From Eledone cirrhosa (taxonomy: Eukaryota), in NCBI GenBank assembly GCA_964016885.1, contig OZ024743.1, positions 39,618,001-39,682,000 of the forward strand: 64,000 nt of DNA, read 5' to 3'. Shown here one piece after another: positions 3,571 to 62,600 of this stretch. The first letter of the stretch is position 1, and every line of letters starts with the position of its first letter. A program made the position numbers and the translations under genes. Under the pieces are notes generated by a model. The model was not told where the DNA came from. It did not search any database and was given only the letters and a program-made list of their open reading frames with translations.

Positions 3571-4299
3571 GAGATGACCTAAAGCCAAAGAACCCCACAT
3601 AACTGGCAAGCCCATGGTGACCTGCTGAATTTATTTCAATCGTACACACACACACACACACACACACAGACACACACACATACATAGTCAAGCGCGCGGA
3701 CACACACACACATATATATATATATAATAGAATGGAAAAGGAAAAATCAGTGATGCATCGGAACTCAATTTATTGTGTGTTATAATTGTTTCCCGGGCTA
3801 ACAGCTCGACGTGCGATCCGTCTGTGGATCTACCTGACTCTAGTTTCTGAAAACCCCAGAAAGAGGATATGATCCGAAATCAAAAGACACCGGCTTATCT
3901 CTACACTATATATAATACACCCCATGACAGCTTTTACATGTCAATTTTATACATCTGCCTCATGTCAGCTAGTTTTACACGCTAAAGTCGTAGATATACT
4001 ATGTTTCTTACCTAAATTGATGTTGTGATTATTTCAAATAATTTATTGCTAGCACTGTTAGTATTGTTGTTATTGTTCTGATTGAATGCCATTACTACTA
4101 TATAAAGTAGCCATGCCTGTATATTCCTTTCATTCTCACAAGCTCCGATGAATTGACTGGTTACAACTATGTATTGGTGATCGAATGACGTGGAAAGAAG
4201 CGGGAAGCGATCTCTGACCTGCCAGTTTAGAGAAACAATTGTCAGCAATGAGATTAAAAACCTTTTTTGTATATCAAGCCGTTCACTCTTCTTTCCTGA

Positions 4300-8518: not shown

Positions 8519-9799
8519 CTAAGGCGGGTAAAATTCCCGAGATCCATGGACGAGTTCTCTCCAGCGGTCTCTGTCCCTCATTATCGCTGCCATGTCCTGC
8601 GTCTCCAACAGACCAGTGTCTGTCCTTAGGGCATCAACATATGTTAACCTTGGTCTTCCTCTTCCAGTGTGTCCATGTAGGGGCTCCCAAAGGAGCACGG
8701 AGTGCAATGTCAACTCTGGATGTCGGTGAGCATGTCCAGCCAACCTCAGTCTCCTCTGTGTCACTTTTGAGCTGACTTTTGGGAGGCTCCCATACAGCTC
8801 TGAGTTTTTCATCCTCAGTGTATACTGATTAATGTTCAGAGCCATCCTCAGCATTCTCGTGTAGCACCCATCCACCATCTGAGTGAGTCTCTTGGTCAGT
8901 GTCCAAGTCTCAGACCCATACAGCAGCACAGACTCCACTACAGCAATGAAGAGGCGGATTTTCAGGTCTCTACGAAGGTCCGACTTCCACACCGATCTCA
9001 AGCTGTGGCACGCCGCCCAGGCCTTGCTCTTCCTCTCAACCACATCATCTTCCGTATTCCCAATCTTTGCTCCCAAATACAGGAAGTCCTCAACCAATTC
9101 CAGCGGCTTCCCGCCTACATTAGTGATCCCCTCTGGCTTCTCAACATTCTCTACCAGATATTTTGTTTTAGTCTCATTCATTCTCAGCCCCACACTCATC
9201 GACACAGTCTCAACCTCCCGCATCAAATCCTCTGCCTCCTTCACTGTATTTGTCACCAAAACTATGTCGTCGGCAAATTCAGCATCCGATACCTTTTTCG
9301 CCCCAACTCTCCTGCTCTGAGCCGGTGCTACAGTAAAGCCAGAGTCCTGGTGTTTCTCCAGTGCAAGGCGCATACAATAGTCCACTACGATGATAAAAAG
9401 GTAGGGAGCCAATGTATCTCCCTGGAGCACTCCAGCCAGTATCTCAAAGAACTCTGTCATCCCATCAGGTGTAATGACTTGGGCTTTGGTGTTGGTGTAG
9501 AGCAGTGATATCAGGTCCACTATCCTCTTGGGGATTCCATAAGCCTGTAAGATCTTCATCAGGCAGTAACGGTCCACAGAATCAAAGGCCTTCCTAAAGT
9601 CAATGAAAACCATGACCGCAGGAAGGCACTTTGCTCTAGCTCCCTCTAATATCCTCCTCAGCATCAGGATGTGACTGGTGGTTGATCTACCCTCTCTGAA
9701 GCCGTTCTGGTTGTCCCTGAGCTTCTTCTCCATCTCAGGCTGGATCCTGTTAAGAATCATCCTGTTGAGGGTCTTTGCCACAAGTGTATATATATTCAT
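8519..9799 (-). CDS. RTE-clade non-LTR retrotransposon reverse transcriptase, 5'-truncated but uninterrupted; true element boundary ~9785
   Basis: [51 protein letters not shown] and GRPR motifs; no APE domain; stop followed almost immediately by (TA)n. Confidence 0.92.
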
Positions 9800-15591: not shown

Positions 15592-16787
15592 AGTTTACAT
15601 ATATATATACATACATATACATATACGTGTTTTGCAACTGGTCACTTTGTGGCTCAATGAAAAATTAATAAATTAAACAATCAGAGCTATATATCATAAA
15701 ACATGTCTATAGAATCACAAGATAAAATATATACTATTTCCTCTCCCAATTACCATAATTAACTATATAAAAAATCGAATAGACCAGGCTGTAAGAATGA
15801 AGCTTCTATGAAGAAATCTCCGACAAATAACCGAAACTAGCGCTTCGCGTCGGCCGTAGCGGGATATTTATCGAATATTTCGCAGCGTAATCGCCCAGAT
15901 ATAGTCAACTAAACAGAATTAGGTGTAAAATAAACTAGGAGAAAATAGAATACATTTAAATACCTCTACCAAGGTTTCGTCCGTATTTTGAGTTTTCCAA
16001 TAATTATGCAATAATTATATAAACTCGAGCGCCTGATTCATCAGGAAGCTCGCTCTTTTCTAGACACTAAATTTTCCAAAGTGGTCGCGCCAAGAATTCA
16101 TTTCAAAATGGCTAAAAATCGTGACGTAGTCGCGGTCAGGTTGGAAGGAGTGTGGTAGTTGCTTACGACTGGTGGCATTTTTGCTAGAAACCACAGCACA
16201 ATACAGCCAAATTTGTATCTCAACCTAATGGGAGATTATTACATATTAAAGTTTACATATATATATACATACATATACATATACGTGTTTTGCAACTGGT
16301 CACTTTGTGGCTCAATGAAAAATTAATAAATTAAACAATCAGAGCTATATATCATAAAACATGTCTATAGAATCACAAGATAAAATATATACTACTTCCT
16401 CTCCCAATTAGCATAATTAACTATATAAAAAATCGAATAGACCAGGCTATAAGAGTGAGACTTCTATGAAGAAATCTCCTACAAATAACCGAAACTAGGG
16501 CTTCGCGTCGGCCGTAACGCAATATTTATCGAATATTTCGACAGCGTAATCGTCCAGATATAGTCAACTAAACAGATTAGGTGTAAAATAAACTAGGAGA
16601 AAATATATAGCTCTGATTGTTTAATTTATTAATTTTTCATTGAGCCACAAAGTGACCAGTTGCAAAACACGTATATGTATATGTATGTATATATATATAT
16701 GTAAACTTTTATATGTAATAATCTCCCATTAGGTGAGATACAAATTTGGCTCTATTGTGCTGTGGTTTCTAGCAAAAATGCCACCAT
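15592..16787. mobile_element. Non-autonomous repeat: partial tandem (~658-bp period) plus terminal inversion
   Basis: 15592-15946 is repeated at 16250-16604; 16604-16787 is the rc of ~16172-16352; bounded by (TA)n. Confidence 0.75.
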
Positions 16788-20337: not shown

Positions 20338-21879
20338 TTAAGGGTACTATTTATGGCTATGTATGCAATAAAACCTTTAATGGTAATATATTATATATAC
20401 ACAAACCCTAAATAGTGAAAGATAGTCATTAATTACTATCCTATTACCAGTAAGATAAATAGCACAATGTATTAACATCAGTTGTTTTACAGAGCAGTTA
20501 TATAGAGATTACAATAATCAAAGTTCAGTTTAAGTCATTTATTTGCTTACAATTGTTTCCTCCAAACCGAGGTTTGGTTTCTTCGGAGCAACTATTTACT
20601 GATCTATAACATACTTGACCTCCTTTTCAACCAAGAGACACATAAAACATATGCGCATATTTATCAACAGTGGGGTGACATTCATCAAATGATATAGCAT
20701 GGCAATTTACATATAAAGGTTACAGGATAAACATAAAATAAAAACAAGAATGAAAATAAAGATAAACATGAAGCGTTGGCAGTCTATGAAGATAAAGCAA
20801 GAGGAAAGTTTAGAGTAGTCAGTGTATGAAACAGTCTCACGTGTAGCATGCACGCGTGTCTTATTTATACATGATTAGAGTGCGTCAGAATGATATTTGC
20901 AGGGTCAGGCAGTTGAAGCAGGCAATCGATCTTATTATGTGGGCTAGATTATTAAGTCATTTATTCTCATACATCTGTATGATATACAGTCTCGGATGCA
21001 GGGAAACACCAAAATATCAAAAACTATCCACACACTAAAAACCTTATTGTATCGTAGGCAAAGCCGTACCACTGTCTTCGCTCACTCCACCACTCACATA
21101 ATCCATGAGACGCAATATATATAGAGAACACTTGTCTATCGTATAATTCGCGGTGGTTCAGCATATAATCAAGCTATAAACCGTATCCAGTCGGTTCTTA
21201 ATTAATAGATCGTGCTGAATAACGTATATCTTTAACTTTGGAGATTTTGATAACTTAAACTATAACTAATTTTGTATTGACTTATTATGTATTTTAAATA
21301 CTTTCAATATTAATTAATTTAATAAGGTTTTCTAGTCATTTATCCGGGTTTGATTCCTAATTGTTTTACTTAACTGCTTGTGACACCTAAGTAAATATAT
21401 TTGTTTTTGTTTTTCGATTTCCGGTTGATTTTATTTATATTTTTTTTACTACCGAGCGTAGTTTCTGTCTGGTTCTTATTCACTTATTCCCATATGTCTG
21501 TCTACCAACCATGTAATTATGTATACTATACTATGTTTGTTATTTGATATTGAAGTTGTTATATCATATATCTTTATGTAATCGTACTATAGATCTTAAA
21601 TATTTACCGATTATTCGATGTACCCTTATGTTAAATTTTGGAAATTCTGTAATATGTTTATATTTTTATGATTTTTATAATGTTTAGATAATATTTATTT
21701 ATACCAATTGTATAAAAACTCGACCTCCGTCTGTTTTGTTACAACGGTATAGATATTTTTCCAGCACAATTTTTTCAACACAATTCAATTCTGTATGATA
21801 ATTTTTCTCACCCTGTGTGTAACTTTATATGATTTGTTAAGTTATATGGCTTTCCAAACATAAATGTTGTATTTATAGC

Positions 21880-22644: not shown

Positions 22645-22839
22645 TACACACATATATATACACATATACACACACATATATATGTATATATACATACACA
22701 CATACACACACATACGCATACATGCATACATAAAATACACATTCATACATACATATATATACATATATATACATAAATATATATATATTTATATATAAAG
22801 AATGAATAATAACAGGTAGACATCATAAAAAGGTAGTTT

Positions 22840-22963
22840 ATTCCGTGTGCTTACAAGTGTTTCCACGGTGGTACTGCAGCCTAGTTCCGCTACGTGCAAA
22901 TTCACAAGTATTTGCAGAACTCGAATATCCAATGCTGTGACCACTGTTTCCTCAGAGCAGAAT
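22840..22963 (-). ncRNA. Hammerhead ribozyme with ~85-nt branched stem II (copy 1)
   Basis: Reverse complement of the 28135-28258 motif. Confidence 0.75.
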
Positions 22964-23452
22964 GGTAAATATACAATGCAAAAACCCTTAAGTGGGGTTG
23001 TTGGGGAAGATAGAGTGGAACAGGAAGAAAGAAAAGTAGGGAAGATGGAGAGAGAAGGAAAGATATGCAGGGGTTGGAGAAGTAGGAGAGAGTGGCTTGT
23101 AGATATCTTAATCAAAATGTTATGGTAGGGGTTTTATTAGTTACTTTTGGAGAGATGCGTAGATAGTTGAGGTCGGAATTATTTATTGCCCCAGAGGTCA
23201 AGTTCATAGATGTTGAGAGGGAGGTAGGTCAAAGGTGAGAGAGAGAGAGTGTAATGGATGTAGAGAGAGATATATAGGTAGAGAGGGGACAGATAAAGTA
23301 TATGCGGTGAGTGAACTTTTGGTTTTGTAGTAGTAATCTAGGAATTGTACTGAGTTACCATGTATAGTGATAAGCAGTGTATTGTCTTGTAGTGTGGGGG
23401 AGAAGAGAAGGTTGTTAGCTAGAAAGTGGTGTTGTAGTTACGGGTTCGAATG

Positions 23453-25780
23453 TTAAGTTATTTTATAGTGAGAGAATTTAGCTTTTAGTTTGTGGTTGCA
23501 GTATAATGATCGTTCAATTCTATCGTTAAGTAGTTTGTTTTTGGATTTTAGTATGTAAAATAGCTCAAGGTTACATAACCTGCAGTACTTCAAACCACTC
23601 CGATATGCATTTGCGCTGGAAAGTATATCCCATTTTAAGGTGAACTGTTGGTTGTGTTCACGGAGTTGCCAGGTCTTGTTGGCGAGCGTGGTCACAAAAC
23701 GGTGATTCTGATGTTTGATTGAGAATCGATGACGGTACCAGCGAGATTTAAACGATGTGGTGGTAGATCCGATATAATACCATTTCTGGTCGTCCGATTC
23801 AACCGTGCATTGGTAAACAATGTTGGACTTTAGGCATTCATTCTGCAATGGACATCTTTCAGGTAGATGGCAGTTACATGCTTTGTTGTGGGTAGCGGGT
23901 ATACCATGGATAGGTTGTGATAGCGGTACAGGTGGGTTGTGCAATATCCGTCTCCCATTTAGTGGTTGGGAGGCAGATATTGCGTTCTGCCCACCTGTTA
24001 CTAAAATGTTTTGTTTTGTAGAGTTGTTTAATTGCCTTAAGTTAAGTTTTTTTATGTAAGCTTCAAGGTTTGGTGCCGTGGAGTATGATAGTCTAATAGT
24101 TTTGGAGTTCAGAATTTTGCTGTACTTATGGGAACTAGGGAAGTGTTTATTGATTAATTTAAAGAATGAAAGAGATAGTTTTGTACTAATCGAGGCATTA
24201 AAAATAGGATTATACCAGATATACTTTCTACAACGTGATTTATTTGGTGGTGAACTTCTATTATTAGTATGTCTGGTAGTATAGTGTGTGTGTGCTTGTG
24301 TTTTAGTCCCCCGGTTACGTATACCTTGATTACGTGTAGAGCTATGTGTGTTGTGGAAATTACTATCGATGTATTCTATTGTATCCCGGTGGTCAGCATT
24401 CCTTAATGCATTATTGTAGTATTCAGCATGCTCGCTAAAAATATCAGAGTTAGACGATAGGCGAGAGATTCTAAGAGAAATACTCCGGGGAACTGATTTG
24501 ATCATGGAGAGTGGGTGGTTAGAGTTAAAGTTAATATACGTAAGGTTCTCATTTACCTTGTGGAAGGGTCGTATCTGTCCGGTATTTAAATTAAGAGTTA
24601 CGTCCAGAAAGTTTACTACCTTAAGATTGTATTCGTATGTTATTTTTAGGCCCAGTTCACTAAAAGATTTTCTAATATTTTTCCGTAGCCTTTCAAGATT
24701 TTGGTTATTCAAGTTATTAACTAATAAGAGCCCGTCATCTCTATATATCCCCCCCTGTAGATTACTAAATCTACTATGTAATATGTGGGCTATGTAAATT
24801 CCCACGAGATCCGTGACCTCCGCCGAGTCGTTGGAACCCATGGTAATATCGAAATTTGTGGGTCTGTCCTTACGTTCCCAGTAGCAGTTATCGAACTTAA
24901 TAATGGTTTTTCTAGCCTCGAGAATAATATTAATTTCTTCCTCCGTTAGGTCGGAATTGGCCTTAGCAAACGATAGGGCCTTACGTAAAGTGCTTGGTGA
25001 GATGGAAGAGTAGTATTCGTCTATGTCAAATTGTATAAACTTAGATTTATTCTTATTCTTAACATTATTAAACCAGCGAATTGCTTCGCTAGTGTTGCCC
25101 CATAATTTAATTTCAATTTTCTTTTTCACTTGAGTTATTACTCTGTCAAGTATATGTTTACTAATTTTCCCTATGTCTGATTTAGAAGGGCATATAAGTC
25201 TAATCTTAGGGTTAGAGTCAAAATTTACCTTATGGTCCTTCAGGTTGAAGGTGGGGGTAGCGGGTATAATCGGCTCGGTTCTATCGTCTATCTTGAGATT
25301 CTTTACCACTTTGTATGCCTCGTTGTTAATATTTGCTAGCGTAGTTTCATTTGTTTTTCTATATTTTTTGTGTAGTTCGTTGCGTATGAAGTTATTATAC
25401 GTATCGATATCCATGGTATACACGTTAGAAGTCTTGTCAGCTTTCACAACAATTCCATTGGTATTTTGCAATCTTCGGAGTAGTGCTTTCATGTTGTTCT
25501 GCAGCTCATTATTTCTATGTCTGTTGAACTTAATGTTCATGGTAGTTTTCAATAAGTCCTGTTCGAAAGCTTCGAGGTGAGGGTTTGTAGGTGGGTTTTT
25601 ACATGATTTAAAACCATATGATTCAGACGAGTGATTGGCGCGTCCTTTATCGAAGTGGAAAGCTTTCCATCGTACACGCCGAATGAAGTCGTTACTGCGT
25701 TGAATCATACTGAGAATATATTCCCTTTTGTTAGGTATAGGTATGTTTTTAAGTGACATACCTATATGATGCCTTTCCAT
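23453..25780 (-). CDS. PLE polyprotein: RT + CxC-x5-CPL-x3-C linker + GIY-YIG endonuclease (Hydra-clade-like), intact, 775 aa
   Basis: SLKNIPIP N-terminus, KADKT, FIQFDIDEYYSSI, MGSNDSAEVTDLVG, IYRDDG, NFLDVTLNL, NHP, CNCHLPERCPLQNECL, NIVY...YYIGST, CRLC, LLNDRIE. Confidence 0.95.
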   Translation of the reverse strand: MERHHIGMSLKNIPIPNKREYILSMIQRSNDFIRRVRWKAFHFDKGRANHSSESYGFKSCKNPPTNPHLEAFEQDLLKTTMNIKFNRHRNNELQNNMKALLRRLQNTNGIVVKADKTSNVYTMDIDTYNNFIRNELHKKYRKTNETTLANINNEAYKVVKNLKIDDRTEPIIPATPTFNLKDHKVNFDSNPKIRLICPSKSDIGKISKHILDRVITQVKKKIEIKLWGNTSEAIRWFNNVKNKNKSKFIQFDIDEYYSSISPSTLRKALSFAKANSDLTEEEINIILEARKTIIKFDNCYWERKDRPTNFDITMGSNDSAEVTDLVGIYIAHILHSRFSNLQGGIYRDDGLLLVNNLNNQNLERLRKNIRKSFSELGLKITYEYNLKVVNFLDVTLNLNTGQIRPFHKVNENLTYINFNSNHPLSMIKSVPRSISLRISRLSSNSDIFSEHAEYYNNALRNADHRDTIEYIDSNFHNTHSSTRNQGIRNRGTKTQAHTHYTTRHTNNRSSPPNKSRCRKYIWYNPIFNASISTKLSLSFFKLINKHFPSSHKYSKILNSKTIRLSYSTAPNLEAYIKKLNLRQLNNSTKQNILVTGGQNAISASQPLNGRRILHNPPVPLSQPIHGIPATHNKACNCHLPERCPLQNECLKSNIVYQCTVESDDQKWYYIGSTTTSFKSRWYRHRFSIKHQNHRFVTTLANKTWQLREHNQQFTLKWDILSSANAYRSGLKYCRLCNLELFYILKSKNKLLNDRIERSLYCNHKLKAKFSHYKIT

Positions 25781-26017
25781 ATTAATGCCGTGTGTCGATG
25801 TGGTTGCTCAACTATGTAGGAGACGATTATTAGGTATAGGATTATCCAAGATGCAGTGATGGTTAATTACTACACTGGATATGGTTGACGTACGGTAAGA
25901 GGTTACTCTACGAGTTATGGAAGAATTGTTCAAGAAACTTAGTTCCTGATCCTTCAGTATTCCGGAGTGTATATAAAGAATGAATAATAACAGGTAGACA
26001 TCATAAAAAGGTAGTTT

Positions 26018-26141
26018 ATTCCGTGTGCTTACAAGTGTTTCCACGGTGGTACTGCAGCCTAGTTCCGCTACGTGCAAATTCACAAGTATTTGCAGAACTC
26101 GAATATCCAATGCTGTGACCACTGTTTCCTCAGAGCAGAAT
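26018..26141 (-). ncRNA. Hammerhead ribozyme with ~85-nt branched stem II (copy 2)
   Basis: Mirror image of 28135-28258. Confidence 0.75.
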
Positions 26142-26630
26142 GGTAAATATACAATGCAAAAACCCTTAAGTGGGGTTGTTGGGGAAGATAGAGTGGAACA
26201 GGAAGAGAGAAAAGTAGGGAAGATGGAGAGAGAAGGAAAGATATGCAGGGGTTGGAGAAGTAGGAGAGAGTGGCTTGTAGATATCTTAATCAAAATGTTA
26301 TGGTAGGGGTTTTATTAGTTACTTTTGGAGAGATGCGTAGATAGTTGAGGTCGGAATTATTTATTGCCCCAGAGGTCAAGTTCATAGATGTTGAGAGGGA
26401 GGTAGGTCAAAGGTGAGAGAGAGAGAGTGTAATGGATGTAGAGAGAGATATATAGGTAGAGAGGGGACAGATAAAGTATATGTGGTGAGTGAACTTTTGG
26501 TTTTGTAGTAGTAATCTAGGAATTGTACTGAGTTACCATGTATAGTGATAAGCAGTGTATTGTCTTGTAGTGTGGGGGAGAAGAGAAGGTTGTTAGCTAG
26601 AAAGTGGTGTTGTAGTTACGGGTTCGAATG

Positions 26631-27278
26631 TTAAGTTATTTTATAGTGAGAGAATTTAGCTTTTAGTTTGTGGTTGCAGTATAATGATCGTTCAATTCTA
26701 TCGTTAAGTAGTTTGTTTTTGGATTTTAGTATGTAAAATAGCTCAAGGTTACATAACCTGCAGTACTTCAAACCACTCCGATATGCATTTGCGCTGGAAA
26801 GTATATCCCATTTTAAGGTGAACTGTTGGTTGTGTTCACGGAGTTGCCAGGTCTTGTTGGCGAGCGTGGTCACAAAACGGTGATTCTGATGTTTGATTGA
26901 GAATCGATGACGGTACCAGCGAGATTTAAACGATGTGGTGGTAGATCCGATATAATACCATTTCTGGTCGTCCGATTCAACCGTGCATTGGTAAACAATG
27001 TTGGACTTTAGGCATTCATTCTGCAATGGACATCTTTCAGGTAGATGGCAGTTACATGCTTTGTTGTGGGTAGCGGGTATACCATGGATAGGTTGTGATA
27101 GCGGTACAGGTGGGTTGTGCAATATCCGTCTCCCATTTAATGGGAGACGGATATTGCACAACCCACCTGTACCGCTATCACAACCTATCCATGGTATACC
27201 CGCTACCCACAACAAAGCATGTAACTGCCATCTACCTGAAAGATGTCCATTGCAGAATGAATGCCTAAAGTCCAACAT
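26631..27278 (-). CDS. Chimeric 215-aa ORF across the palindrome axis: antisense-derived N-terminus + Cys-rich linker + GIY-YIG domain
   Basis: C-terminal ~168 aa identical to the PLE endonuclease; created by the inversion junction. Confidence 0.45.
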   Translation of the reverse strand: MLDFRHSFCNGHLSGRWQLHALLWVAGIPWIGCDSGTGGLCNIRLPLNGRRILHNPPVPLSQPIHGIPATHNKACNCHLPERCPLQNECLKSNIVYQCTVESDDQKWYYIGSTTTSFKSRWYRHRFSIKHQNHRFVTTLANKTWQLREHNQQFTLKWDILSSANAYRSGLKYCRLCNLELFYILKSKNKLLNDRIERSLYCNHKLKAKFSHYKIT

Positions 27279-27645
27279 TGTTTACCAATGCACGGTTGAA
27301 TCGGACGACCAGAAATGGTATTATATCGGATCTACCACCACATCGTTTAAATCTCGCTGGTACCGTCATCGATTCTCAATCAAACATCAGAATCACCGTT
27401 TTGTGACCACGCTCGCCAACAAGACCTGGCAACTCCGTGAACACAACCAACAGTTCACCTTAAAATGGGATATACTTTCCAGCGCAAATGCATATCGGAG
27501 TGGTTTGAAGTACTGCAGGTTATGTAACCTTGAGCTATTTTACATACTAAAATCCAAAAACAAACTACTTAACGATAGAATTGAACGATCATTATACTGC
27601 AACCACAAACTAAAAGCTAAATTCTCTCACTATAAAATAACTTAA
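26998..27645 (+). CDS. Mirror chimeric 215-aa GIY-YIG-only ORF
   Basis: ATG at 26998; the frame stays open through the axis into NGRRILHNPP...HYKIT. Confidence 0.45.
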   Translation: MLDFRHSFCNGHLSGRWQLHALLWVAGIPWIGCDSGTGGLCNIRLPFNGRRILHNPPVPLSQPIHGIPATHNKACNCHLPERCPLQNECLKSNIVYQCTVESDDQKWYYIGSTTTSFKSRWYRHRFSIKHQNHRFVTTLANKTWQLREHNQQFTLKWDILSSANAYRSGLKYCRLCNLELFYILKSKNKLLNDRIERSLYCNHKLKAKFSHYKIT

Positions 27646-28134
27646 CATTCGAACCCGTAACTACAACACCACTTTCTAGCTAACAACCTTCTCTTCTCCC
27701 CCACACTACAAGACAATACACTGCTTATCACTATACATGGTAACTCAGTACAATTCCTAGATTACTACTACAAAACCAAAAGTTCACTCACCACATATAC
27801 TTTATCTGTCCCCTCTCTACCTATATATCTCTCTCTACATCCATTACACTCTCTCTCTCTCACCTTTGACCTACCTCCCTCTCAACATCTATGAACTTGA
27901 CCTCTGGGGCAATAAATAATTCCGACCTCAACTATCTACGCATCTCTCCAAAAGTAACTAATAAAACCCCTACCATAACATTTTGATTAAGATATCTACA
28001 AGCCACTCTCTCCTACTTCTCCAACCCCTGCATATCTTTCCTTCTCTCTCCATCTTCCCTACTTTTCTCTCTTCCTGTTCCACTCTATCTTCCCCAACAA
28101 CCCCACTTAAGGGTTTTTGCATTGTATATTTACC

Positions 28135-28258
28135 ATTCTGCTCTGAGGAAACAGTGGTCACAGCATTGGATATTCGAGTTCTGCAAATACTTGTGAATTT
28201 GCACGTAGCGGAACTAGGCTGCAGTACCACCGTGGAAACACTTGTAAGCACACGGAAT
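28135..28258 (+). ncRNA. Type I hammerhead ribozyme with ~85-nt branched stem II, upstream of the ORF; predicted cleavage after 28246
   Basis: Stem I ATTC-TGCT/AGCA-cacg-GAAT; CTGAGGA at 28143-28149; stem II helices GTGGT/ACCAC, CAGC/GCTG, AGTTCTGC/GCGGAACT; GAAA at 28235-28238; CACTTG; GUA triplet; AATAAA follows. Confidence 0.8.
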
Positions 28259-28495
28259 AAACTACCTTTTTATGATGTCTACCTGTTATTATTCATTCTT
28301 TATATACACTCCGGAATACTGAAGGATCAGGAACTAAGTTTCTTGAACAATTCTTCCATAACTCGTAGAGTAACCTCTTACCGTACGTCAACCATATCCA
28401 GTGTAGTAATTAACCATCACTGCATCTTGGATAATCCTATACCTAATAATCGTCTCCTACATAGTTGAGCAACCACATCGACACACGGCATTAAT

Positions 28496-30823
28496 ATGGA
28501 AAGGCATCATATAGGTATGTCACTTAAAAACATACCTATACCTAACAAAAGGGAATATATTCTCAGTATGATTCAACGCAGTAACGACTTCATTCGGCGT
28601 GTACGATGGAAAGCTTTCCACTTCGATAAAGGACGCGCCAATCACTCGTCTGAATCATATGGTTTTAAATCATGTAAAAACCCACCTACAAACCCTCACC
28701 TCGAAGCTTTCGAACAGGACTTATTGAAAACTACCATGAACATTAAGTTCAACAGACATAGAAATAATGAGCTGCAGAACAACATGAAAGCACTACTCCG
28801 AAGATTGCAAAATACCAATGGAATTGTTGTGAAAGCTGACAAGACTTCTAACGTGTATACCATGGATATCGATACGTATAATAACTTCATACGCAACGAA
28901 CTACACAAAAAATATAGAAAAACAAATGAAACTACGCTAGCAAATATTAACAACGAGGCATACAAAGTGGTAAAGAATCTCAAGATAGACGATAGAACCG
29001 AGCCGATTATACCCGCTACCCCCACCTTCAACCTGAAGGACCATAAGGTAAATTTTGACTCTAACCCTAAGATTAGACTTATATGCCCTTCTAAATCAGA
29101 CATAGGGAAAATTAGTAAACATATACTTGACAGAGTAATAACTCAAGTGAAAAAGAAAATTGAAATTAAATTATGGGGCAACACTAGCGAAGCAATTCGC
29201 TGGTTTAATAATGTTAAGAATAAGAATAAATCTAAGTTTATACAATTTGACATAGACGAATACTACTCTTCCATCTCACCAAGCACTTTACGTAAGGCCC
29301 TATCGTTTGCTAAGGCCAATTCCGACCTAACGGAGGAAGAAATTAATATTATTCTCGAGGCTAGAAAAACCATTATTAAGTTCGATAACTGCTACTGGGA
29401 ACGTAAGGACAGACCCACAAATTTCGATATTACCATGGGTTCCAACGACTCGGCGGAGGTCACGGATCTCGTGGGAATTTACATAGCCCACATATTACAT
29501 AGTAGATTTAGTAATCTACAGGGGGGGATATATAGAGATGACGGGCTCTTATTAGTTAATAACTTGAATAACCAAAATCTTGAAAGGCTACGGAAAAATA
29601 TTAGAAAATCTTTTAGTGAACTGGGCCTAAAAATAACATACGAATACAATCTTAAGGTAGTAAACTTTCTGGACGTAACTCTTAATTTAAATACCGGACA
29701 GATACGACCCTTCCACAAGGTAAATGAGAACCTTACGTATATTAACTTTAACTCTAACCACCCACTCTCCATGATCAAATCAGTTCCCCGGAGTATTTCT
29801 CTTAGAATCTCTCGCCTATCGTCTAACTCTGATATTTTTAGCGAGCATGCTGAATACTACAATAATGCATTAAGGAATGCTGACCACCGGGATACAATAG
29901 AATACATCGATAGTAATTTCCACAACACACATAGCTCTACACGTAATCAAGGTATACGTAACCGGGGGACTAAAACACAAGCACACACACACTATACTAC
30001 CAGACATACTAATAATAGAAGTTCACCACCAAATAAATCACGTTGTAGAAAGTATATCTGGTATAATCCTATTTTTAATGCCTCGATTAGTACAAAACTA
30101 TCTCTTTCATTCTTTAAATTAATCAATAAACACTTCCCTAGTTCCCATAAGTACAGCAAAATTCTGAACTCCAAAACTATTAGACTATCATACTCCACGG
30201 CACCAAACCTTGAAGCTTACATAAAAAAACTTAACTTAAGGCAATTAAACAACTCTACAAAACAAAACATTTTAGTAACAGGTGGGCAGAACGCAATATC
30301 TGCCTCCCAACCACTAAATGGGAGACGGATATTGCACAACCCACCTGTACCGCTATCACAACCTATCCATGGTATACCCGCTACCCACAACAAAGCATGT
30401 AACTGCCATCTACCTGAAAGATGTCCATTGCAGAATGAATGCCTAAAGTCCAACATTGTTTACCAATGCACGGTTGAATCGGACGACCAGAAATGGTATT
30501 ATATCGGATCTACCACCACATCGTTTAAATCTCGCTGGTACCGTCATCGATTCTCAATCAAACATCAGAATCACCGTTTTGTGACCACGCTCGCCAACAA
30601 GACCTGGCAACTCCGTGAACACAACCAACAGTTCACCTTAAAATGGGATATACTTTCCAGCGCAAATGCATATCGGAGTGGTTTGAAGTACTGCAGGTTA
30701 TGTAACCTTGAGCTATTTTACATACTAAAATCCAAAAACAAACTACTTAACGATAGAATTGAACGATCATTATACTGCAACCACAAACTAAAAGCTAAAT
30801 TCTCTCACTATAAAATAACTTAA
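28496..30823 (+). CDS. PLE polyprotein (RT + GIY-YIG), intact, 775 aa, identical protein to 23453-25780
   Basis: Same motifs; ORF-track translations are identical. Confidence 0.95.
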   Translation: MERHHIGMSLKNIPIPNKREYILSMIQRSNDFIRRVRWKAFHFDKGRANHSSESYGFKSCKNPPTNPHLEAFEQDLLKTTMNIKFNRHRNNELQNNMKALLRRLQNTNGIVVKADKTSNVYTMDIDTYNNFIRNELHKKYRKTNETTLANINNEAYKVVKNLKIDDRTEPIIPATPTFNLKDHKVNFDSNPKIRLICPSKSDIGKISKHILDRVITQVKKKIEIKLWGNTSEAIRWFNNVKNKNKSKFIQFDIDEYYSSISPSTLRKALSFAKANSDLTEEEINIILEARKTIIKFDNCYWERKDRPTNFDITMGSNDSAEVTDLVGIYIAHILHSRFSNLQGGIYRDDGLLLVNNLNNQNLERLRKNIRKSFSELGLKITYEYNLKVVNFLDVTLNLNTGQIRPFHKVNENLTYINFNSNHPLSMIKSVPRSISLRISRLSSNSDIFSEHAEYYNNALRNADHRDTIEYIDSNFHNTHSSTRNQGIRNRGTKTQAHTHYTTRHTNNRSSPPNKSRCRKYIWYNPIFNASISTKLSLSFFKLINKHFPSSHKYSKILNSKTIRLSYSTAPNLEAYIKKLNLRQLNNSTKQNILVTGGQNAISASQPLNGRRILHNPPVPLSQPIHGIPATHNKACNCHLPERCPLQNECLKSNIVYQCTVESDDQKWYYIGSTTTSFKSRWYRHRFSIKHQNHRFVTTLANKTWQLREHNQQFTLKWDILSSANAYRSGLKYCRLCNLELFYILKSKNKLLNDRIERSLYCNHKLKAKFSHYKIT

Positions 30824-31312
30824 CATTCGAACCCGTAACTACAACACCACTTTCTAGCTAACAACCTTCTCTTCTCCCCCACACTACAAGACAATACACT
30901 GCTTATCACTATACATGGTAACTCAGTACAATTCCTAGATTACTACTACAAAACCAAAAGTTCACTCACCACATATACTTTATCTGTCCCCTCTCTACCT
31001 ATATATCTCTCTCTACATCCATTACACTCTCTCTCTCTCACCTTTGACCTACCTCCCTCTCAACATCTATGAACTTGACCTCTGGGGCAATAAATAATTC
31101 CGACCTCAACTATCTACGCATCTCTCCAAAAGTAACTAATAAAACCCCTACCATAACATTTTGATTAAGATATCTACAAGCCACTCTCTCCTACTTCTCC
31201 AACCCCTGCATATCTTTCCTTCTCTCTCCATCTTCCCTACTTTTCTCTCTTCCTGTTCCACTCTATCTTCCCCAACAACCCCACTTAAGGGTTTTTGCAT
31301 TGTATATTTACC

Positions 31313-31435
31313 ATTCTGCTCTGAGGAAACAGTGGTCACAGCATTGGATATTCGAGTTCTGCAAATACTTGTGAATTTGCACGTAGCGGAACTAGGCTGC
31401 AGTACCACCGTGAAACACTTGTAAGCACACGGAAT
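31313..31435 (+). ncRNA. Hammerhead ribozyme (copy 4, 3' pLTR), one G deleted before GAAA
   Basis: ACCACCGTGAAACACTTGTAAGCA here versus ACCACCGTGGAAAC in the other three copies. Confidence 0.75.
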
Positions 31436-31627
31436 AAACTACCTTTTTATGATGTCTACCTGTTATTATTCATTCTTTATATACACTCCGGAATACTGAA
31501 GGATCAGGAACTAAGTTTCTTGAACAATTCTTCCATAACTCGTAGAGTAACCTCTTACCGTACGTCAACCATATCCAGTGTAGTAATTAACCATCACTGC
31601 ATCTTGGATAATCCTATACCTAATATA

Positions 31628-57976: not shown

Positions 57977-58020
57977 ATTAGCCGACAATGTTTCGTCCTA
58001 TTAAGGACTCATCAGGCAAT
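57977..58020 (-). ncRNA. Minimal hammerhead in a ~200-bp island between (TA)n tracts
   Basis: rc: ATTGC CTGATGA GTCCT-TAAT-AGGAC GAAA CATTG TC GGCTAAT; stem I register is off by one nt. Confidence 0.7.
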
Positions 58021-61346: not shown

Positions 61347-61430
61347 TAATATAGATCATCTATTACTCCTAATCTACTGAATAAGGCACTAACTTACGCA
61401 TTTAAACATACAGACATAACTAGCAATGAA

Positions 61431-62600
61431 ATGCACATAATATTATCGGCACGGAAAACATTAATGGAATTGAATAAACAACTCTGGACTAGGGCAGATA
61501 GAAATAATAATTTCGACATAACTATGGGTTCTTCCGACTCCGCTCAGGTAACGAATCTTGTGGGCCTATTTATAATTAATTCTCTACATAGAAAAATACC
61601 TGAGATAACCGGAGGTCTATATCGTGACGACATACATATACTTATAGAAAATAATAACTGTGAACTAAATAGAAAAAGAAAGCAAATTATACAATTTTTT
61701 AATTACCTTAATCTAAAAGTAGAAATAGAGAATAACCAAAAAATAGTCAATTTTCTAGATGTAACACTAAATCTTAACACATGTCTTCATTATCCATTTC
61801 ACAAGCTAAATGAGAACTTAAATTATGTCAATTTTAACTCTAATCACCCCAGATCCATTAAAAATACTGTAGTGAACTCTGTACAAGAACGAATTTCGAG
61901 AATTTCAGCTAATAAGAATATATTTGATGAAAAAGCACATTATTACAGCGAAGCGTTAGGTAGAGCTGGGTATAGAAATAAAATTAAATACATCGATAAT
62001 AATAATAATATAACAACTAACCATAATCGTAACAATTTTAACTATGGTAACAATTTTAACAACTATAATAGAAAACCTTACATTAATTCCGAAAGCCGAA
62101 AAAGAAATAGAACTAGGAACATATTATGGTTCGCTCCTCCTTTCTCATTAAATATCAAAACCCCTATTGCTAAATTATTTTTTAAAGCTCTTGACAAATG
62201 CTTCCCTAGAACACATAGATATTACTCAATTTTTAATAGACATACTATAAAATTAACTTATTCTTCCACCAAAAATTTAGCGCAAAATATTAATAGAATT
62301 AATAATAGAAATTTAAAACCTAACCAACATACCAATAATAACCCAAACAATATTCAATCTGATAAATTTAACTGTAGAAATAAATCTAACTGCCCGTTAA
62401 ATAACAATTGCTTAGCTAAAAATGTAGTATATAATTGTAATGTAAAAACTAATTCAAATTCATTTAATTATGTGGGTTCTACCTCCCCAGAGTTTAAATC
62501 CCGCTTCAATAATCATAAAAAATATTTTACAGATCCAAACAAAAAATCTTCAACTTCTCTATCTAGCCTATTATGGGACCTAAAACTAGAGAACGTTTAA
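61431..62600 (+). pseudogene. 5'-truncated Hydra-like PLE RT-GIY-YIG; premature stop at 62600, homology spans ~61355-62790
   Basis: IILSARKT, FDITMGSSDSAQV, GGLYRDD, NFLDVTLNL, NHP, WFAPPF, NCRNKSNCPLNNNCL, NVVY...YVGSTS. Confidence 0.9.

Follow-up and report, generated by a model that had tools for sequence, protein, structure and literature searches.

A hammerhead motif with an extended, covarying helix II in the pseudo-LTR of a Hydra-clade Penelope-like element of Eledone cirrhosa

Penelope-like elements (PLEs) carry hammerhead motifs whose role is an open question (PMC7761336, PMC8557442). In Hydra-clade PLEs the motif is type I and lies in the pseudo-LTR (pLTR) 3′ of the ORF, with an unpaired or mismatched 10.1/11.1 and a short palindromic stem III (Craig et al. 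2021, PMC8557442). In that study the core-only search was limited to spacers up to 17 nt, none of the 26 Hydra rows of File S2 has its core boxes more than ~26 nt apart, and unexplained 'half-core' cases are listed at 35–50 nt. Minimal metazoan PLE hammerheads are weak and dimer-type, include a U3-A8 core variant and close opposite-strand pairs, and have a helix II of 7–8 bp where it is 'larger than usual'; unit release followed by circularisation was proposed for them (Cervera and de la Pena 2014, PMC4209133).

For cleavage, the hammerhead of the anole Poseidon PLE (PAc) depends on the protein of its own element (Frangieh et al. 2024, PMC11167929). Its helix II is short and overlaps the start codon, and for insertion most of this helix is dispensable and cleavage is not required. 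RNA downstream of the ribozyme is needed, with the shortest active template starting at +20, beyond most of helix II; two RT starts downstream of the ribozyme match the genomic tail, and both target strands are extended.

Enlarged separations between the core halves have been described elsewhere. The non-canonical hammerheads of spike-moss PLE-X elements, marked as deviating in File S2 of PMC8557442, are also PLE-borne and have an enlarged helix II, the longest in that file being PLE-X1_sMoe with ~54 nt between boxes. The mammalian discontinuous Clec2 hammerhead – in a host gene 3′ UTR, not a retrotransposon – has an insertion of several hundred nt and a site immediately upstream of a poly(A) signal (PMC6765202). 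The 'long helix II' hammerheads of fungal and plant RNA viruses are type I, with an ORF downstream and no canonical loop-loop contact, but that helix is 6–8 bp, helix III is stable, and the motifs are monomer-active with a role in translation initiation (PMC13725137).

Here, we describe a type I hammerhead motif in which 75–96 nt separate the core boxes. It resembles the Hydra-clade motifs in type, pLTR position, the 10.1/11.1 feature and stem III, and its element has the same protein motifs and (TA)n target, but the insert is far outside their spacer range and has conserved inner loops. With the minimal metazoan motifs it has in common the dimer-type architecture, weak predicted activity, U3-A8 variants and opposite-strand pairs, whereas the predicted rod has ~25–30 bp with internal loops. 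The spike-moss cases are single examples from a distant plant clade, shorter than the rod and with no covariation shown, and the Clec2 insertion has not been presented as a conserved rod. Two termini and extension of both target strands recall the anole element, although the tail here is 142 nt, and protein assistance, shown there, is our reading for the rod hammerhead. Of these features, the hammerheads of PLEs, their dimer folding, the U3-A8 variant and the circularisation model are already on record, and the 75–96-nt covarying helix II appears to be new: no such helix in a PLE was found in the literature searched (including PMC3088659, PMC6765202, PMC7761336 and preprint 10.64898/2026.07.22.740005), several supplements and subscription papers lying outside it.

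The host element and its hammerhead copies

The window is a 64,000-nt stretch of Eledone cirrhosa DNA (contig OZ024743.1), and its features are collected in Table 1. The insertion is embedded in TA repeats and forms a near-perfect 4.3-kb palindrome, the left arm ending at a 28306-type terminus and the right arm at a 28448-type terminus. Its repeats differ at three places: two substitutions and one deleted G. A sequence-only reading of the window had listed four hammerhead copies; all are present. Those at 22840 and 26018 belong to the inverted arm and read on the minus strand, and at 31313 a G directly preceding GAAA is missing, which leaves a spacer of 84 nt.

Table 1. Features of the insertion and its hammerhead motifs (positions in the window)
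Feature	Position	Strand	Basis
Entire insertion: two arms of 1.4 units each, head to head about centre 27138; unit 3,178 bp	22792..31625	.	
Terminal hammerhead copy of inverted arm, predicted site after 22852	22840..22963	-	
Second intact ORF copy	23453..25780	-	
Hammerhead copy in inverted arm, predicted site after 26030	26018..26141	-	
Type I hammerhead motif, helix II extended; in upstream pLTR of + arm	28135..28258	+	
Stem I: 28139–28142 pairs with 28247–28250	28139..28250	+	
Core box C3-A9 (CUGAGGA)	28143..28149	+	read from sequence
Helix II rod, 85 nt	28150..28234	+	predicted
Rod base: unpaired A/G; basal helix	28151–28158 with 28226–28233	+	predicted
Rod helix with bulged A28165	28161–28169 with 28214–28221	+	predicted
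Rod helix, then GA/AG internal loop	28173–28176 with 28209–28212	+	predicted
Rod apical helix	28182–28188 with 28197–28203	+	predicted
GAAA box, stem III (2 bp, near-palindromic loop) and GUA triplet	28235..28246	+	
AAUAAA hexamer, 10 nt past cleavage site	28256..28261	+	
Two 3′ termini of DNA copies, 28306 and 28448, with 142-nt 'tail' between	28306..28448	+	
Intact 775-aa ORF from ATG, RT and C-terminal GIY-YIG	28496..30823	+	motifs read in translation
Downstream pLTR hammerhead copy, predicted site after 31423	31313..31435	+	

The motifs RWK, DKT (changed from DKG), a CxCx5C linker, and EN CxxC and CxH can all be read in the ORF translation, and these are diagnostic of the Hydra clade (Craig et al. 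2021, PMC8557442); the EN CCHH motif was not seen when the translation was inspected by eye. The element also has the (TA)n insertion and the tandem/inverted pLTR structure that define Hydra-clade PLEs, and from ORF motifs, target and pLTR structure we assign it to that clade. Pfam gave no family for the ORF at E 0.01 and a PDB search gave nothing; one homologue carries PF01541, and the best database homologues are 33–42% identical. Because many genomic copies have full-length ORFs at 98–100% identity, and a 32-base motif of the window family (family A) occurs 1,498 times in the genome, this family is young and abundant. A non-LTR retrozyme was rejected as the source, since a short non-coding tandem unit would be expected in place of a 3,178-bp unit with an intact ORF. 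Elsewhere in the window are a fragment of another Hydra-type ORF (61350–62600, plus strand), 41% identical to the window protein, and an RVT_1 reverse transcriptase fragment of another retroelement (8519–9799, minus strand).

The earlier description of the motif as a PLE hammerhead with an unusually long helix II is supported, and its sequence elements are as reported: CUGAGGA and GAAA-CACUUG-UA separated by 85 nt, and a 4-bp stem I (UGCU/AGCA) with a distal AUUC/GAAU. GAAA occupies 28235–28238 and is followed by C-ACUU-G and UA, with cleavage predicted after 28246; stem I is paired in 113/116 cells within family A. The AAUAAA hexamer just beyond the site is a possible poly(A) signal, and lies within 22 nt of the site in 35/38 rod-class variants versus 6/36 short metagenome hammerheads.

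As had been anticipated, standard searches miss the motif: in an Rfam scan, none of the 150 listed matches (of 216) places Hammerhead_1 (RF00163) at any of the four copies, and the insert far exceeds the 17-nt limit of the Craig et al. search. The scan did find a short hammerhead at 57977–58020. This and two further window hammerheads, at 20548–20586 and near 16044, are on the minus strand, with spacers of 14, ~20 and 59 nt, respectively. Another family is represented at 4145–4243 on the plus strand by a decayed hammerhead of the rod class, with the core CCGAUGA and a score of 54.8 bits.

Folded alone, the 124-nt stretch has a minimum free energy (MFE) of −30.0 kcal/mol in a structure other than the hammerhead, with z = −0.38 relative to shuffles. 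The active fold of the window copy is at −22.7 kcal/mol, ~7 kcal/mol above the MFE, and its stem I has a pair probability of 0.05–0.08. Helix III is not that of a stable monomer, having 2 bp with a pair probability of ~0.2, and is near-palindromic like the dimer-type PLE motifs. A canonical loop I-loop II contact is unlikely given the long predicted basal helix.

Shape and covariation of the helix II insert

We took 45 representatives, requiring TAG or TCG in the 3′ arm, and dropped seven (six of other insert classes and one with an internal duplication), leaving 38 variants in eight groups, with 49% identity between groups. N7 and H17 vary freely across the 38, and in 31 of them the stem III loop is self-complementary at its two free positions. 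The basal helix closes with at least 4 bp in 31/38 variants, against 5.0 expected, after one unpaired or mismatched position. The checks proposed in the sequence-only reading included conservation of core and stem I among relatives and covariation across genomic copies. Both core and stem I are conserved, and with one row taken for each of the eight groups, cognate arms outperform permuted ones, at p=0.0006 for the basal helix and p=0.0008 for stem I. Stem I attains 4 bp in just 20/38 variants; the set includes some 5′-truncated copies.

The insert folds with a mean z of −1.87, and 13/38 variants are below −2; the window family is at −1.36, and family B, with a perfect rod, at −3.96. RNAalifold gave no consensus on the 38-row MAFFT alignment and seven pairs on 26 well-aligned rows, which leave out families A (window), B, C, D and F. 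A 30-pair rod written by hand from the 26 rows has 82% of its cells paired, with frequent G-U pairs, and 102 double-change cells against 38.9 in shuffles (0/500), distal pairs included, although relatedness inflates this test; counted by pairs that have such changes, the excess is not significant (82/500 shuffles). Compensatory changes occur far from the core, at columns 37-70 and 40-67. A covariance model from the 26 rows scores family B at 41.7 bits, C at 37–39 and D at 33–37, whereas the window copies reach 29.8 bits, which does not exceed the 30.2 bits of an unrelated short motif.

A bulged A beside U-G and U-A pairs is found in 29/38 variants, against ~5 in shuffles, and a GA/AG internal loop in 34/38, against ~4, both counts being inflated by the required TAG or TCG. 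These features are at matching places, including in the window copy. The helices have turned over while the loops are kept, and UAG-R is nearly invariant in the 3′ arm.

The fold differs in two respects from that first proposed. The insert had been read as a branched stem II, but on modelling it is an unbranched rod with internal loops, and the GUGGU/ACCAC and CAGC/GCUG helices are present in the sequence. In addition, AGUUCUGC/GCGGAACU had been taken as the main helix and UGCAAA/UUUGCA as an alternative, and the reverse is favoured. Among 31 distinct family-A variants, AGUUCUGC/GCGGAACU is paired in 224/248 cells with no double-sided change; UGCAAAU/AUUUGCA is paired in 210/217 and is 3.7 kcal/mol more stable (−22.7 versus −19.0), and its accompanying register has a compensatory change of C28175-G28210 to U-A (12 versus 18 variants), although the adjacent pair 28174-28211 of that register is broken in 20/31. 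In families B (L061–L064) and C (L068), an 8-nt complementarity between the sequence directly following the cleavage site and the rod 3′ arm can be seen by eye, a possible inhibitory switch.

Long-spacer hammerheads in the genome and among relatives

The core pattern CUGAnGA-N(80–95)-GAAACAnnUGUH has 10,079 matches in the genome and its reversed control 35. Over the other spacer ranges covered, there are 10,212 matches (84 in the control) at 5–34 nt, 6,047 (90) at 50–79 nt and 2,496 (74) at 96–125 nt. Motifs with 50–125-nt spacers thus number ~18,600 (controls 199 in total), although ranges may double-count single motifs, and exceed the short ones. The U3-A8 core pattern is too noisy for a count, with 17,251 matches against 3,257 in the control.

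Families B (67% identity) and C (64%), fetched by protein homology, keep the core with 90-nt spacers. Family B has intact ORFs and many near-identical copies, yet just one contiguous bp of stem I. Family D, also found by protein, has the core UUGAAAA, a U3-A8 swap; its stem I has 4 bp and its rod 75 nt. Two more U3-A8 motifs have stem I of 6 and 4 bp. Family E (42% identity) has a 31-nt insert and a U15.2-A16.2 pair. An interpretation of the D and E cores as decayed proved wrong, and a 105-nt match in locus L310 is an artefact of a more distant GAAAC. The swap in families found through their proteins is non-circular evidence, from sequence comparison, of selection on catalytic geometry.

A tree built on the C-terminal parts of the proteins (38 rows, published Hydra proteins left out) groups 11 of the 12 rod-bearing rows in one clade with support 100/99; the other, L295, lies outside it, and as its ORF is 1.5 kb from the motif the link is unsure. 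Across families whose proteins are 42–68% identical to that of the window (parts compared), the insert stays at 75–96 nt. Of 77 metagenome loci of relatives, 29 carry a hammerhead downstream of the ORF end, always with a spacer of 10–30 nt, and the rod model gave one weak match (E 0.49). Given the single rod clade and the short spacers in metagenome relatives and published Hydra rows, the rod looks like a single gain within the lineage of this genome.

Long helix II inserts of other kinds arose repeatedly in this genome, with unrelated inserts of 26–104 nt in many other hammerhead families. One class (55245 on the plus strand, and loci L086, L227 and L275) has an 89–104-nt helix II of unrelated sequence, a 9–10-bp stem I and a CGAUCG stem III palindrome. 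A big class (L254, L265–L279) has 58–62-nt inserts sharing a GAGUCAGG-like motif, makes up much of the 6,047 matches at 50–79 nt, and has no Hydra ORF within 1.5 kb. A third (L406–L408, L188, L283) has a branched 93–97-nt insert; its motifs recur in tandem ~990–1,010 bp apart, in L408 downstream of a Hydra-type ORF, possibly as a retrozyme-like unit or a two-ribozyme 3′ UTR.

Copy ends and candidate roles of the rod

The ends of 91 family-A copies were scored along one contig. At the 3′ end, 48 copies stop at 28306 and 30 at 28448, which lie 60 and 202 nt beyond the cleavage site; nine more stop no further than 10 nt from one of these two positions, three continue into the ORF, and none of the 91 ends at the cleavage site, 28246. 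Contigs from four likely-DNA runs (at most two samples, one study) also have TA loose ends at 28306 and 28448. Both are likely RT start sites, and the pattern agrees with the published one-sided 'tail' and the two anole RT starts (PMC11167929). Among 26 inverted pairs, a few perhaps segmental duplicates, 21 join one 28306-type and one 28448-type end, the remaining five involve a copy running into the ORF, and none has two alike ends; that all 21 terminal pairs are unlike suggests two templates or ordered two-strand priming per event. Between 28440 and 28472 a pyrimidine tract and YAG precede GUUGAGCA, ~30 nt upstream of the ATG, resembling a 3′ splice site in families A–C and F. A GUYGAGY motif occurs twice in most families, family E included.

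The copies extend upstream from these ends and across the cleavage site, so they could not have been made on a linear 3.18-kb cleaved unit; it follows that uncleaved or circular RNA is the template. A start of copies by run-off of RT at a cleaved 5′ end was rejected, since just one of the 91 begins at the site (5′ end at 28247). Truncations at the 5′ end are concentrated over the ribozyme relative to the following 150 nt (48/89 versus 3/41, p=2e-7), less so relative to the preceding stretch (10/23 versus 6/29, p=0.13); short-helix motifs also have inversion junctions directly beside them, so the pile-up is not credited to the rod. The insert had earlier been suggested to be an RT-recognition or regulatory domain grafted onto the ribozyme. 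A grafted functional domain is plausible; recognition in the narrow sense of RT initiation is disfavoured by copy ends 60 and 202 nt downstream and by the anole template starting at +20.

We tentatively favour a type I hammerhead whose rod-extended helix II is a protein docking site. The rod would bind a protein, most likely the element's own RT-endonuclease, through contacts that may include the conserved bulged A and GA/AG loop, and the bound protein would gate a slow, dimer-dependent cleavage. That the motif cleaves we infer from the C3-G8/U3-A8 swap and stem I covariation; a need for two copies is suggested by the 2-bp stem III with its self-complementary loop, and unaided misfolding by the ~7 kcal/mol gap to the MFE. 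With an uncleaved or circular template, RT would begin beyond the ribozyme, on its downstream side, and read across it, so that cleavage would not define insertion ends; it may instead regulate the RNA by trimming read-through transcripts, removing the AAUAAA just 3′ of the site, or permitting circles. Against this account, family B amplifies with a 1-bp stem I, the stem III dimer is at its weakest in the window family (−1.1 versus −6.4 kcal/mol), insertion of the anole PLE requires neither cleavage nor most of helix II, and rod-less Hydra elements amplify equally, as seen in the 10,212 short-spacer matches, one of them linked to a Hydra-type EN end, and in family E.

The last point is shared with a credible though unlikely account in which the ribozyme is real and the rod a tolerated elaboration, any long hairpin being accepted, only closure selected, and the inner motifs kept by common descent. 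The unrelated inserts of other hammerhead families, the equal abundance of short-helix Hydra families and covariation clearest at the basal pairs would all fit it; it explains less well the fixed insert length over such divergent proteins, the compensatory changes distant from the core, and internal loops that outlast their helices. Family B, amplifying with a perfect rod and a broken stem I, instead argues for a cleavage-independent role of the rod in reverse transcription, as a signal for RNP assembly or template recognition, with the core a weak or optional passenger; the rod is also 70–300 nt upstream of the two DNA termini. We consider this decidedly unlikely, given that the U3-A8 swaps and stem I covariation point to selection on catalytic geometry, that the GUYGAGY repeats downstream of the site, common even to rod-less family E, are better placed, and that the anole PLE requires RNA downstream of its ribozyme (PMC11167929).

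It is improbable that the conservation reflects a DNA-level or splicing signal, such as an internal promoter or a splice site at the conserved UAG/G, with the fold incidental. PLE pLTRs do hold internal promoters and sometimes an intron overlapping the hammerhead, and UAG-R is near-invariant, but compensatory and frequent G-U pairs are signatures of RNA structure, and no GT..AG joint was found among the contigs, a weak point as these likely derive from DNA runs. The insert itself is improbable as an intron, with weak donors, no supporting joint and covariation that favours structure. A near-perfect 4.3-kb palindrome and a whole-motif fold no better than shuffles could hint at chance or an assembly artefact, which is extremely improbable given thousands of dispersed copies in many divergent families and arms that end at different termini, like 21 other inverted pairs; as the source of the motif, it is ruled out by pattern counts and covariation.

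A bolder form of the favoured reading, which we regard as quite unlikely, is a natural allosteric hammerhead, in which a clade of retrotransposons would have grafted a protein-binding rod onto helix II, the position where engineers attach aptamers, and the element's own RT-endonuclease would switch self-cleavage and pair two RNAs via helix III; if true, this pairing would serve two-ended integration. Since long-spacer motifs escape Rfam and the published descriptors, hammerhead censuses may be too low, and some PLEs described as lacking the motif may have one. As the element is young and its ORF intact, the covarying rod and its conserved inner loops would offer a concrete handle on protein-gated cleavage.
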